Assembly (NCBI GenBank): GCA_963733565.1
Contig: CAVTDU010000038.1
Location: 81,466 to 145,465 of the forward strand
Direction: 5' to 3'
Source: an uncultured Gammaproteobacteria bacterium
GTDB taxonomy: Bacteria > Pseudomonadota > Gammaproteobacteria > Steroidobacterales > Steroidobacteraceae
DNA length: 64,000 nucleotides
Below are positions 2,954-63,108 of the stretch, piece by piece (within the stretch, counting starts at the first letter, position 1; every line of letters starts with the position of its first letter). A program made the position numbers and the translations under genes. The notes beneath the pieces were generated by a model. The model ran no database searches and had not been told where the DNA came from. It was given only the letters and a program-made list of their open reading frames with translations.

Positions 2954-4184
2954 TCAGACCTGCAGCAACAGCCGCGCCGGATCCTCCAGCGCGTCCTTCA
3001 CTGCGACGAGGAACTGCACGGCGTCGCGGCCGTCGACGATGCGGTGATCGTAGGTCAGCGCCAGGTACATCATCGGCCGCACGACGACCTGCCCGTCGAC
3101 CACGACCGGGCGTTCCTGGATCTTGTGCATGCCGAGGATCGCGCTCTGCGGGGCATTCAGGATCGGCGTCGACAGCAGCGAGCCGAACACGCCGCCGTTG
3201 GTGATCGTGAAGGTACCGCCGGTCAGTTCCTCGATCGTCAGCGAGCCCTCGCGCGCGCGGTTGGCGTAGCCCACCACGGCCTGCTCGATCTCACCGAAGC
3301 CGAGGGCATCGGCATTGCGCAGCACCGGCACGATGAGCCCGCGATCGGTAGAGACGGCCACGCCGATGTCGTAGTACTCGTGGTACACGATGTCGGTTCC
3401 ATCCACCGAGGCATTCACCAGCGGAAAGCGGCGCAGCGCCTCGATGCTGGCCTTGACGAAGAACGACATGAAACCGAGCCGCGCGCCGTGGGCCTTCTCG
3501 AAGCGCTCCTTGTAGCGCGCGCGCAGTTCGTTGACCGCCTTCAGGTCCACTTCATTGAACGTCGTCAGCATGGCGGCGGTCGCCTGGGCCTGCACGAGTC
3601 GCTCCGCAATGCGCGCCCGCAGGCGCGTCATCGGGACCCTGCGCTCGCCACGGGCGCCGGCCGGAGCACTCGCCGGCGCAGCAGGTGGCGCCGGAGTCGC
3701 GGCGGCAGCCGCGGGACCAGCCGCCCTTGCTGCCAAGGTGGGAAAGCACGTCACCCTTGGTGATGCGTCCGTCGCGGCCGCTGCCGGGAATCGCACCGGG
3801 CTCGAGCTTGTGCTCCTCGACGAGGCGACGCACGGAGGGCGCGAGCTTTTCGGCACTGCCGCCCGTCTTCGCATCGGCCGCTGGAGCAGGCTGCGTGGGC
3901 GCAGCAGGCGCCGTTGCCGCGGCTGGTGTCGAAGCTCCTGCGGCCGCGCCTTCATCGAGCAACGCGAGCACCTGGCCACTCGTGACGACGGCGCCGTTCT
4001 GCACCTTGAGTTCCCTGATGACGCCCGCCGCCGGCGCAGGCACTTCGAGCACGACCTTGTCGGTCTCGAGGTCGACGAGGTTCTCGTCGCGGCTCACCGC
4101 GTCGCCGGGCTTCTTGTGCCAGGCCACGAGCGTCGCATCCGCGACCGACTCGGGGAGTTGCGGGACGCGTACTTCGATGGTCAT
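2954..4184 (-). CDS. sucB: dihydrolipoyllysine-residue succinyltransferase (2-oxoglutarate dehydrogenase E2), one apparent frameshift
   Basis: N-terminal lipoyl domain [19 protein letters not shown]...[12 protein letters not shown]3-binding [13 protein letters not shown]-terminal catalytic domain with DHRIVDG. Frame switch near 3715-3730. Confidence 0.88.
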
Positions 4185-59741: not shown

Positions 59742-60384
59742 GCCGCGTCTTCCCGCGCCATCAGCGGCATCGAGACGGTACCACTGGTGCGATCGATGGC
59801 CTGCACCAGCTTGATGGATTCCTTCTCCATCTGGATGACGAGCGTGTCCACGCGGCCACGCAGGTACCGTAGGCGACCAGCGCCGGTATCGCCACCAGCA
59901 GCCCCGCGGCCGTCGTGATCAGCGCCTCGGAGATGCCGCCAGCCATGGCCGTCGGGTTGCCGACGCCCGCCAGCGTGATCGCCTTGAACGTGCGGATCAT
60001 GCCGGTCACGGTGCCGAGCAGCCCCAGCAGCGGCGAAATGGCCGCGATGGTGCCGAGCATGTTCAGGTAGCGCTCGAGGTCGTGCACCACGTGCCGGCCG
60101 GCGTCCTCGATGGCGCCGATCATCACGGCACGGTCCCGATGCCGGTTCGCGAGGCCCGCCGCAAGCACGCGGCCCAGCGGCGAATGCTGCTGCAGCGCCA
60201 TGATCTGCTTGTCGGACAGCGCGCGGTTCTCGACCCACTGCCAGACCTTGTCGGTCAGCTCGACCGGCACGACCCGCTGGGAGCGCAACGTCCACAGCCG
60301 CTCCAGCGTAATGGCGACGGCCAGGATGGAGCACAGGATGATCGGCACCATGACGATGCCGCCGGCCTTCACGATCTCGAACAT
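59738..60384 (-). CDS. exbB: MotA/TolQ/ExbB proton-channel protein, one apparent frameshift
   Basis: MFEIVKAGGIVMVPIILCS..., GLLGTVTGMI, AEALITTAAGL motifs. Frame switch near 59865-59880. Confidence 0.85.
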
Positions 60385-60568
60385 GTGGTGGCTCGTTGTC
60401 CCCTGCCGCTGCGCCCGCGGATCATACTTGAAGGGGGACCCAGCCGCGACCCGGGACCGCCTAGGGAAGCTCTGCACAGGTGCGCACGGCCGCCTTCTGT
60501 CCGGTCGCCGTCACCGAGCGCGCAAGGTCAGCCACGCCGACTTTCGCTTCGGCACCGCGCGTCGAACG

Positions 60569-60779
60569 TGCGAGCGCGGTCAATCAATCGCGGGCGCGTC
60601 CGACCCGGTACCGTTCCCCGAGCTTGGAAAGGCAGACACGCGCTCTGGGAACGGTACCGGGTCGCACGCTTGCGACGTGCCAGCCTGCGGCGCCGTTAGA
60701 GCGCACGATCCGGTGCCTGTCACAGAGCGCGTGTCTGCCTTTCCAAGCTCGGTGACAGGCACTGGATCGAGCGCTCGCA
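60569..60779. repeat. twin inverted hairpin modules E6 (identical 28-nt loops, compensated stems)
   Basis: Hairpin 1 at 60601-60664 (perfect 18-bp stem); hairpin 2 at 60707-60768 (17-bp stem, one G-T). Loop 2 is the exact reverse complement of loop 1. Outer 9-bp pairing 60569-60577 / 60771-60779. Confidence 0.9.
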
Positions 60780-60802
60780 ATGCGGACCTGCCCAGCGCTT
60801 CC

Positions 60803-63108
60803 CTAGGGATCCGTCCAGATGCGCGCGTGCGCGAGCCGCCATCGCGAGGGTGGATCGAGTGGCAGGCCTGGAATGACGTCGAATTCGATGGCGCCCGAGT
60901 TCGACGTGTGCAGCACTTCCGCCCCGCGAGTCCCGCCATCGCTCGACGATGGCCGGGGCCGGGAATCCCCAGCGATTGCGATGACCTGCCGACACCACGG
61001 CCCAGCGCGGCCGGGTTGCGGCGACGAACCCCGCGCTTGACGACGTGCGGCTGCCGTGATGCGGGACGACGAGGATGTCTGCCGGACCGGACAGCCCAGC
61101 GCTCGAGCAATGTGCTGCTCGGCGAGCTTCTCGACGTCGCCCGTCAGGACGATGAGACGCGGTCCCACGCGTATCGCGAGCACGCACGAGCGATCGTTGT
61201 CGCCGGGCAGCAGCGGCTCGGACGGATGCAGCCAGTCGAAGCGCACTCCGTCCCAGGTCCAGTGCTGCCCGGCCCGACAGGGCTGGACGCGCCCGAGCGG
61301 ATCGAGCGCGCGACCGCTTGCCACCCGCTCCCGCACGCGCAGCAGCTGCGCAACCGACGCGGCTCCCCCGGCGTGATCGTCGTCGTCGTGACTGGCAACC
61401 AGCATGTCGACCGTGCGTACGCCCCGACTGCGCAGGTATGGCTCGACGACGAGCAGGCCCGTGTCGGTACCGCTGCGGAAGGCCGGGCCGGTGTCGTACA
61501 CCAGCACGTGACGACGCGTCTGCACCACGACTGCAAGCCCCTGCCCCACATCCAGCAGCGCGAGGTGGACCGCGCCCGGTGCGGGCGGCGGCGCCCGCCA
61601 GGCCGCCGAGCGCGACGACCATGATCACTCCGGCAACTCGTCCCGGCGCCGGCAACGGCGCGAGCGCCGCGACAGCCCCGGCAACGAGCGCAATCCAGCC
61701 GGCGACCGGCAGGGAGGCGATGCCCCAGGTGGCGTGCAGCCAGCCCGCCGGCGCTTCGATCAGCGGCCAGGTGAACTCGATGAGCGAGGCCACGACTCCC
61801 AGTACTGCCGCACCTGCTGCAGGCGCGACCAGCGTCACGGCCGTTCCGATGAGGATTGCCGGAACGATGACCAGCGTATAGAGCGGAATCGCGGCCGCGT
61901 TCACGACGGCCGATACCAGCGAAACGCTGCCGAATGCGCCTGCAAGCACCGGCACGAGCCCGATCGTCACGGCCATCTGCACGCGCGTGAACCCGGCCAG
62001 GATGCCGGGCTCGCGAACGTGCCCGGTGCCGACGAACAGGATGACCGCTACGGCGACGAAGGACAGCCAGAAGCCCACGGCGAGCGGCGCCAGCGGATCG
62101 AACGCCAGGACTGCAAGCGCGCCGAGCGCGAGCGCGTCGGCCGCTCCGACACGCCGGCGCAGCCGCAGCGCGGCCGCAGCGAGCGCGATCATGATCACGG
62201 TGCGCTGCGTCGGAACCGACCAGCCCGCCAGCAGCGCGTAGCCGAGCGCCGTCAGTGCGCCGACCGCGACCGCTGCATCACGCTGCGTGCCGAGCGCGCC
62301 ACGCCGCTGCCGCCAACGCTGCACGCGCCCCGCCACCCACGCGGCGACCGCCCCGAGCATGCCGATGTGCATGCCCGATATGGCCATCAGGTGACTGGTT
62401 CCGCTGCGGGCCAGCGCACGCCATTGCTCCTGGCTGAGCGCATCCTGCAAGCCGACGGCCAGGCCCGCGACGATCCCGGTCGCGGGTCGCTCGCCGAGCG
62501 CGACGCGGATGCGCGTCGTAGATCTCGCCGCGAGCGACGAGTACCGGCCGCCGCAGCACGTCACGCCAGCGTCGCCCGTCCCTGCTCGCCGTCCTTATGT
62601 AGCCGGTGGCGCCGATGCCTTCCCGCAACAGGCGGGCCTCCTGGTCCATGCCGCCCGGGTTCGAGAATCCGCGCGGTCGGCGCAGGCGCACGTCGAGTTC
62701 GAGCCGCTCGGCAGGCAGCGGCTGCCATTCGGGTTCGTACCACGTGAGCTCGACGATGCGGCGGTATTCCAGCCGCCGGGACAGTAGCGAAGCCGGAAGC
62801 GCACGCCCCCGGAGCGTAACTGCGGCACGGAGGCGACTGTGCCGCGGACCGTTACCGTGCGGCCCTCGAGCGACGGGTCGAGCCTCTCGTTCAACCGTGC
62901 GGAAACGTCCCACCACGCCGCCGCGAATCCCAGCGCAAGCGCGAGGACGGGCCAGGCACGCAGCGCGAGCGCCGACAGCCGTGGCAAGCGCGACGGCCGC
63001 CGCCACCACCTCGCCGCCGGGAAGCTCCGCCAGCAGGAGCAACGCGCAGCAGCCCGCGAGGAATGCACAAGCCGCAGGAACCATCGCCGTCTCCGCGCCG
63101 TCTGCCAC
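60803..63108 (-). CDS. comEC: DNA internalisation competence protein ComEC/Rec2, several apparent frameshifts
   Basis: N-terminal TM/OB region, competence domain (SGTSHLMAISGMHIG...), C-terminal metallo-beta-lactamase domain (ASHDDDDHAGG). Spread over at least four ORF fragments. Confidence 0.8.

Follow-up and report, generated by a model that had tools for sequence, protein, structure and literature searches.

Positions 60461-60806 of the window, the whole stretch of 64,000 nucleotides analysed here, are one MITE insertion into a CTAG at the stop codon of comEC, and the twin hairpins at 60569-60779 are the cargo of this element. Both hairpins are members of a dispersed hairpin family that is confined to one clade of a Steroidobacteraceae genus and reaches thousands of copies across species. 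Taken jointly, the MITE insertion and the membership in this dispersed family are, in our judgement, close to certain. Judged from its features, the cargo is a REPIN-like hairpin doublet of an undescribed family, and a search of the literature found no description of such hairpins. The explanation that we favour as a whole, namely MITE-borne REPIN-like hairpin repeats whose loop would be a recognition site, is likely to be correct.

Results

The hairpins lie in a MITE inserted at the comEC stop codon

The element is 338 bp long (60465-60802), non-coding, and holds both hairpins. It is bracketed by terminal inverted repeats and a duplicated CTAG, which together define a MITE and which were absent from the first, sequence-only reading of this DNA. 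Every defining feature that could be tested was present, and the element is classed as a MITE. The features of the locus are as follows.

59761-60384, minus strand: exbB (MotA_ExbB; Pfam PF01618, E 2.5e-31), about 77 nt downstream of the MITE
60461-60464, no strand: left duplicated target CTAG, assigned from the CTAG on both flanks of nearly all MITE copies and the single CTAG/TCAG in the empty sites of relatives
60465-60486, plus strand: left terminal inverted repeat, 22 nt, GGAAGCTCTGCACAGGTGCGCA; part of inverted repeat I5
60500-60522, plus strand: orphan arm, a copy of the hairpin-2 arm that lacks both a loop and a matching second arm, in the long inverted repeat of the MITE
60596-60669, no strand: hairpin 1, 28-bp stem and 18-nt loop, the loop on the plus strand being TTGGAAAGGCAGACACGC; member of the dispersed family
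60624-60641, plus strand: invariant loop, copy 1, TTGGAAAGGCAGACACGC
60670-60698, no strand: spacer between the hairpins; contains a conserved tail, CGCTTGCGAC, and what is left of the inner module (GGCGCC..GAGCGC); assigned by alignment with MITE copies and generic elements
60699-60776, no strand: hairpin 2, stem of about 28 bp and 18-nt loop, orientation opposite to hairpin 1; plus-strand loop GCGTGTCTGCCTTTCCAA
60729-60746, minus strand: invariant loop, copy 2, reverse complement of copy 1
60781-60802, minus strand: right terminal inverted repeat, 22 nt; part of inverted repeat I5
60803-60806, no strand: right duplicated CTAG, whose CTA is the TAG stop codon of the C-terminal comEC frame on the minus strand
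60803-61549, minus strand: C-terminal part of comEC (Lactamase_B domain; Pfam PF00753, E 2.8e-13), ending at the MITE

The insertion is documented by empty sites. In five relatives (G063, G028, G021, G026, and G014), the comEC-exbB spacer is present without the 342 bp. These sites read ...C(T/C)(C/T)AG|GGATCC..., the reverse complement of the comEC stop codon, and their flanks abut with a single C/T-C/T-AG ahead of GGATCC. Because the 342 bp are missing there and only one CTAG is found, the window carries a 338-bp element inserted with duplication of CTAG. The right CTAG copy restores the TAG stop of the C-terminal comEC frame. The terminal repeats are part of a larger inverted repeat (I5, 60460-60486 and 60781-60807), the 27-nt arms of which are 85% complementary. 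The orphan arm is 83% identical to 60709-60731 (direct repeat D1), and in one MITE subfamily it is identical to the hairpin-2 arm.

A Pfam search backs the ExbB, ExbD, and ComEC domains on either side of the element. The comEC gene is spread over three frames of the minus strand at 60803-63108 (DUF4131 at 62281-63108, Competence at 60723-62564, and Lactamase_B at 60806-61549); the split reflects either pseudogene frameshifts or single-base errors of a long-read assembly. Between the MITE and the start of exbB, the stretch of about 77 nt at 60385-60460 is kept in relatives (GATCATACTTGA..). This stretch probably holds the exbB promoter or a regulatory site, which would have stayed intact after the insertion.

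The twin hairpins have 18-nt open loops and two alternative folds

Both inverted hairpins seen by the sequence-only reading exist. The arms of hairpin 1 (60596-60623 and 60642-60669) are 28 nt long and 93% complementary, and those of hairpin 2 (60699-60728 and 60747-60776) are 30 nt long and 90% complementary. Folded alone, they have energies of -54.4 and -50.3 kcal/mol, respectively. Their stems differ from each other and each is compensated internally, with a single G·T pair in the stem of hairpin 2, as had been described. The window contains two exact copies of the 28-mer CGAGCTTGGAAAGGCAGACACGCGCTCT, one at 60619-60646 on the plus strand and one, inverted, at 60724-60751 on the minus strand, whereas no such pair is expected by chance (100 dinucleotide shuffles). 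The sequence-only reading had taken this 28-mer as two identical loops. The sequence identity stands and the loop length does not: the first 5 nt of the 28 pair with the last 5 nt (GAGC/GCTC after one C·T mismatch), and the open loops are therefore 18 nt long.

The minimum-energy fold of one strand is a single long hairpin in which loop 1 is paired with loop 2. Its energy is -129.9 kcal/mol, compared with -104.7 kcal/mol for the two local hairpins, so that the loop-loop duplex proposed as an alternative conformation is in fact the more stable one. The z-score of the one-strand fold of the region is -10 to -14. The 9-bp outer pairing (60569-60577 with 60771-60779) and the small central hairpin (60664-60680) are likewise present. 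The remnant of the inner module lies at 60680-60698.

Copies of the MITE and the hunt for a parent element

A search with the 22-nt end pattern returned 45 ends in genome G012 and 46 in G064, most of them in pairs separated by about 332 nt. These two sister species carry about 22 and about 23 copies of the MITE, respectively. The flanks of the copies are unrelated and differ from copy to copy, and CTAG stands at both sides of nearly every one. One or two copies each are found in G000 (the genome of the window), G006, G007, and G033. The second copy in G000 (C4:48601-48792) is shorter and has one hairpin only; hairpin 2 is missing and the gap is flanked by the direct repeat GAGCGC. A compensated change has occurred within the MITE lineage, with GGTACC/GGTACC in the window, G033, G006, and G007 and GGGACC/GGTCCC in G012.

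A CTAG target is typical of the IS5 group (4-bp CTAG/YTAR duplication) and of IS630 (CTAG target, TA duplication). The end-pattern search revealed no pairs of terminal inverted repeats at IS length (1-1.6 kb). No PF01609 gene (IS4/IS5-type) was found in the 99%-complete G012, and no similar ends were found at PF01609 loci. The six genomes searched for PF13358 (IS630-type) contained no such gene.

The hairpins belong to a dispersed family of one clade

When the element was used as a BLAST query, the hairpin module of about 75 nt was found by itself in dozens of copies per genome in relatives. With at most one mismatch, the 16-mer GGAAAGGCAGACACGC of the loop occurs in 25 of the 61 genomes of the Steroidobacteraceae genus, and its reversed control pattern gave approximately 0 matches in these genomes. 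The distribution of loop copies is bimodal: 20 genomes have 20-144 copies, a few have 1-4, and 36 have none. G064, G012, and G001 carry 144, 122, and 98 copies, respectively, and the genome of the window carries 4. No exact copy of the 16-mer was present in 148 other genomes of the order, including 11 other genera of the family, or in viral contigs. The sequence-only reading had counted a common dispersed repeat with variable loops as evidence against itself. Only half of this applies: the module is indeed a common dispersed repeat, but its loops are invariant.

A scan of public genomes returned at least 119 stretches with the repeat. Among the matches listed, all are MAGs labelled Steroidobacteraceae, Gammaproteobacteria, or Proteobacteria, except for one short contig labelled Burkholderiaceae; the sources of the listed matches include Danish soils and wastewater plants, Lac Pavin, and other sites. 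The exception is a 3.6-kb contig (L211, JAOUJD010000280.1) that carries the repeat and shares its sample series with a repeat-carrying Gammaproteobacteria bin, and for this reason it is probably mis-binned.

The 225 hairpins aligned (see below) comprise 193 distinct sequences of 74 nt; those found more than once belong to MITE copies or to orthologues. Since nearly every non-MITE hairpin has a stem sequence of its own, the generic family shows no recent burst, and it may no longer be mobile. A search of 20 genomes of the genus that lack the loop gave 2 unrelated matches and no sister family combining this stem base with a different loop. The fourth family hairpin in the genome of the window (G000 C24:27260-27420) is of the generic type with an inner hairpin and has a very different stem, GTTCCGGGTCTTCCCCGGGCGAGC. 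It sits straight after the rho-independent terminator GGGCCGGCGGAAACGCCGGCCCTTTTTTT.

An invariant loop on freely varying, compensated stems

We aligned 225 distinct hairpins in one register and scored 28 x 225 stem cells. The 18-nt family loop, TT-GGAAAGGCAGACACGC, has a mean pairwise identity of 98.3%, compared with 68% in either arm and 32% in the outer flank. The perfect loop conservation noticed for the two hairpins thus extends, at about 98% identity, to the whole family. In the stem, 92.7% of the cells are Watson-Crick pairs, whereas shuffling the partners gave 67.9% (maximum 68.9 in 500 shuffles) and sliding the partner by 1-3 columns gave 14-31%. Cells changed on both sides numbered 1090, against 241 after shuffling. 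Stem positions 9-15 use three or four pair types and are still paired in 91-100% of cases. Stems that are nearly unrelated in sequence, such as GGCGGACATCCCGGTATTCATTCCGGATC, carry the same loop, and compensated changes are also seen between species at one orthologous locus. The compensated stems, which had been taken as a signature of structure from two hairpins, are therefore a property of the family. We infer that the stem matters only as a stem; its pairing could be upheld partly by template switching inside the palindrome, without selection.

The loop was also recovered by a search that ignored it. A pattern made of the stem base only, GATCCGGNNCC-N30-50-GGNNCCGGATC, matched 109 sites in eight genomes, and its reversed control matched 0 sites in the same genomes. 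All of the listed stem-base sites contain the loop, with at most 1-2 changes, indicating that the loop conservation is not an artefact of loop-based retrieval.

The hairpin core is better conserved than the MITE that carries it

Constraint on individual copies was measured in 32 full-length MITE copies from G012 and G064. For 23 of these the selection criterion was the terminal repeats, and for the other nine it was overall similarity to the element of the window; the loop was used for none. Per site and copy, differences from the consensus amount to 0.26% in the two loops, 0.72% in the four arms, and 2.8% in the rest of the element (Fisher tests: loops versus rest, p = 6e-10; arms versus rest, p = 4e-14). 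In the terminal repeats they reach 3.4-4.6%. Conservation of the hairpin core exceeds that of the MITE ends 4- to 10-fold. The cargo is kept while its vehicle decays, a pattern that speaks against neutral hitch-hiking and in favour of either selection acting on every hairpin or homogenisation between hairpins.

Mismatches suggest that one strand folds

The residual non-Watson-Crick pairs are distributed unevenly between the strands. On the strand with loop GGAAAGGCAGACACGC, 176 distinct non-MITE hairpins contain 178 C·A/A·C pairs versus 50 G·T/T·G pairs (binomial p = 5e-18), and a sign test of this bias per hairpin gave 96 versus 21 (p = 1e-12). Since A·C pairs become G·T wobbles on the opposite strand, it is the strand with loop 5'-GCGTGTCTGCCTTTCCAA-3' that keeps its pairing better. 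The inner hairpin is biased in the same direction, with 5.1% versus 2.8% G·U and a lower summed energy. This better-paired strand of the family runs from the centre outward in both halves of a doublet. In the window, it is the plus strand for hairpin 2 and the minus strand for hairpin 1, and the lone G·T of hairpin 2 fits. The bias points to one strand as the folding one, and to a strand-specific single-stranded state of DNA or RNA as its probable setting. It could also stem from strand-biased deamination instead of tolerated wobbles.

Anatomy, arrangement, and gene context of family members

The family consensus reads GTT-GCAGGCGGTCGATCCGGnnCCTTTCCCCGAGC-TTGGAAAGGCAGACACGC-GCTCGGGGAAAGGnnCCGGATCGACCGCTTGC, followed by GAGAC and an inner hairpin. 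The inner hairpin has a conserved base, GGCGCCTGAGC...GCACGGCGC, and a stem that is hypervariable yet complementary, often TTTTCCGC..GCGGAAAA. The flank is conserved past the stem as ..CGCTTGCGAGAC or ..CCTGCAAC. The inner module is seen in loci L059, L087, and L207; where it is missing, the junction resembles a deletion between direct repeats ACGGCG.

Adjacent loops in the order plus then minus form 70 pairs, 98-430 nt apart, whereas the order minus then plus was found only twice, with the loops several kb apart. The normal unit is therefore a convergent doublet like that of the window. Neighbouring loops of the same sense are almost always 57-59 nt apart. They correspond to tandem half-units that comprise the left arm and the loop without a right arm, repeat with a period of 57-59 nt, and lie on the outer side of many hairpins (e.g., L051, L088, L134, L137, and L149). 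Their degeneracy grows with distance from the hairpin.

In 72 of 74 clusters the elements touch the 3' end of a gene, and the neighbouring genes are convergent at 37 clusters, tandem at 35, and divergent at 2, as judged with a crude GC3-based gene caller. Solo hairpins are not clearly biased in orientation towards the upstream gene, 6 being concordant and 3 discordant, numbers too small to judge. The orthologous spacer beside a radA-like gene measures 5-60 nt in loop-free genomes and contains a doublet of 300-500 nt in eight carrier species. In these eight doublets the middle parts are homologous and the stems are different.

Intervals of 1.6, 2.1, and 3.1 kb enclosed by hairpins contained no transposase; they hold small ORFs, a multihaem protein, and unrelated genes. 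At L128 (4290-4908), two small overlapping ORFs of 113 aa and 94 aa, the latter with an HTH-like look, lie between hairpins 1.6 kb apart and may encode a toxin-antitoxin pair. A second, unrelated hairpin repeat, CCTCTCCCGC..GCGGGAGAGGTCGCGCGCAGCGCGGGTGAGGG, is often located directly outside the invariant-loop hairpins (e.g., L113, L136, L138, L139, L186, L206, and L211). In a wastewater MAG (L208, around 3050-3400), several hundred G in a row occur within an element, almost certainly an assembly artefact.

Discussion

Proposed mechanism

In the mechanism that we propose, each hairpin would act as a single-stranded stem-loop that shows its loop as a sequence-specific recognition site. The putative reader would be a protein of transposase or nuclease type, or some other protein that binds nucleic acids. 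The strand that folds would be the one whose loop reads 5'-GCGTGTCTGCCTTTCCAA-3', running centre-outward in each half of the doublet. We regard this mechanism, which is deduced from patterns of conservation and pairing, as evenly poised between right and wrong. Among the candidate explanations of the sequence-only reading, a pair of protein or recombinase recognition hairpins is still the best; searches for PF01797, PF01609, and PF13358 did not point to a partner protein. That single copies are 4-10 times better conserved than the element carrying them argues that some cell factor reads the hairpins.

A more specific scheme can be put forward as a speculation that we consider rather doubtful. 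The hairpins would be the DNA or RNA half of a two-part system, and a lineage-specific non-RAYT protein would read the loop of 16-18 nt. Purifying selection would then hold them at about 50-140 gene ends per genome as domesticated elements that serve the host, for example by delimiting transcripts, labelling chromosomal sites, or steering recombination or transposition. The CTAG MITE would have captured one doublet and be spreading it to genomes otherwise without the family.

At the locus itself, the element between comEC and exbB would be a passenger insertion and no dedicated regulator of exbB. Any effect on exbB, for instance insulation from comEC read-through, would be a side effect. The idea of a locus-specific regulatory RNA for exbB is not supported, because the whole 342 bp are an insertion absent from the comEC-exbB spacer of relatives and its copies lie beside unrelated genes. 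For annotation, the comEC-exbB spacer here should not be taken as a dedicated regulatory RNA, and similar twin hairpins are to be expected at many gene ends of related genomes.

Alternative explanations

A family-wide role in RNA is a separate matter. The hairpins could be elements of 3' untranslated regions, acting as terminators, exonuclease barriers, RNase III sites, or, through the loop, as the binding site of an RNA-binding protein or small RNA, and here they would separate the transcription of comEC and exbB. The adjacency of 72 of the 74 clusters to a gene 3' end, the very stable stems with their strong covariation, and the constraint on each copy all agree with such a role. The convergent layout does too, since a transcript from either side meets the same order of senses. 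An excess of wobbles on one sense is likewise what RNA-level selection predicts, but the wobble-rich sense is opposite to that transcribed from the adjacent gene into the nearest hairpin, and plain read-through predicts the reverse asymmetry. Moreover, wobbles (G·T plus T·G) account for just 0.8% of the pairs when one sense is read and for about 3% when the other is, a small share by the standards of RNA families. A consensus scan of 60250-60950 found 0 terminator-like sites, no U-tract terminator, and no sigma-70-like promoter. There was also no match to an Rfam family: when the window and ten related loci were searched against Rfam 15 at permissive thresholds, only miRNA-precursor models appeared, at 23-44 bits versus gathering thresholds of 60-142. 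Taken together, we consider the RNA explanation unlikely.

Two further explanations concern how the hairpins arose and moved. An ordinary REP/REPIN system moved by an overlooked RAYT (Y1 HUH transposase) would account for the architecture, which matches that of the REPINs of PMC3116915 in its inverted invariant 16-mers, spacer, compensatory changes, long-hairpin versus clover fold, and tandem clusters. In addition, each of the five carriers of the generic family that are at least 93% complete (G003, G020, G027, G034, and G061) has one PF01797 match. However, a survey of 41 genomes placed PF01797 in 6 of 14 carriers and in 17 of 27 genomes without the repeat. G012, which is 99% complete, lacks it, and the surroundings of the Y1 genes in G003 and G027 are free of hairpins out to 1.5 kb. 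A conserved GTAG-type head is lacking as well, and the conserved part is the loop, not a palindrome. Such a system is thus quite improbable here. Still harder to credit is a functionless local duplication and inversion, with stems compensated only by template-switch correction in palindromes. Template switching in quasi-palindromes is an established mutational route, and intermediates with a mismatch are seldom seen, even where the stem varies most. Against it stand the terminal inverted repeats, the target-site duplication, about 45 copies elsewhere, and a family with thousands of copies across species. Template switching, furthermore, cannot keep a loop, yet the loop does not vary, and its conservation exceeds that of the remaining MITE sequence about 10-fold. 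The local duplication-inversion that the sequence-only reading had kept in reserve is refuted on these grounds. The preferred reading remains that of MITE-borne hairpin repeats with a conserved loop as the putative recognition site.

Comparison with known repeat systems

As an insertion, the element resembles the CTAG-target MITEs of bacteria, which are non-autonomous derivatives of the IS5 group or IS630. It is likewise non-coding, with a length of 338 bp, 22-nt terminal inverted repeats, CTAG at both sides, empty sites, and bursts of about 22 copies in two genomes. It differs from them in that no autonomous IS with matching ends was found (PF01609 in G012, PF13358 in six genomes) and in that its cargo of two hairpin repeats is better conserved than its ends. 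MITEs can carry such hairpin modules between genomes.

The cargo is most similar in design to REPINs, which are REP doublets forming hairpins in Pseudomonas and enterobacteria and are served by RAYT transposases (Bertels and Rainey 2011, PMC3116915). Both are extragenic and multi-copy, consist of two inverted invariant 16-mers with a variable spacer, and show compensatory changes in the paired parts (PMC3116915). Both can also adopt either one long hairpin or a pair of local hairpins and form ordered tandem clusters, and both are mostly inherited vertically and persist within their lineage (PMC3116915). Unlike in REPINs, the invariant 16-mer here is the open loop of a 28-bp local hairpin and not a short conserved palindrome. 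The units of about 75 nt and the doublets of 200-550 nt are much larger, almost every locus has its own stem variant without a dominant master sequence, and neither a GTAG-like head in the column profile nor an association with RAYT was found. The usual definition of REP-type repeats, which combines a conserved palindrome with a RAYT, is reversed here, where the unpaired loop is invariant and the stem is free. The folding signal on one strand and the lack of an associated RAYT take the family further from the REP norm.

The family is also a mosaic of modules, namely the outer hairpin, the inner hairpin with its conserved base and hypervariable stem, the tail motifs, and the half-units. In this respect it is similar to the BIMEs of E. 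coli, which combine REP with other short motifs, and to the Correia elements of Neisseria: all are mosaics of short modules located at gene ends, with transcripts able to fold into long hairpins. There is no sequence relation to either. BIMEs are bound by IHF and gyrase, and Correia elements are processed by RNase III.

An analogy for an invariant loop on a variable stem is offered by sites that work as a folded single strand, such as the nonanucleotide loop of rolling-circle/CRESS Rep origins, the CS-6 loop of ssoA, and integron attC. The likeness, which is one of analogy only, lies in a conserved unpaired part, a stem free to change with compensation, and one active strand. Identifying a reader would establish a new system for recognising folded single strands, in a lineage of soil and wastewater that is uncultured. 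Each replicon or cassette has only one of the origins or recombination sites named above, and the enzymes acting there are known, whereas the hairpins described here are present in 20-144 chromosomal copies.
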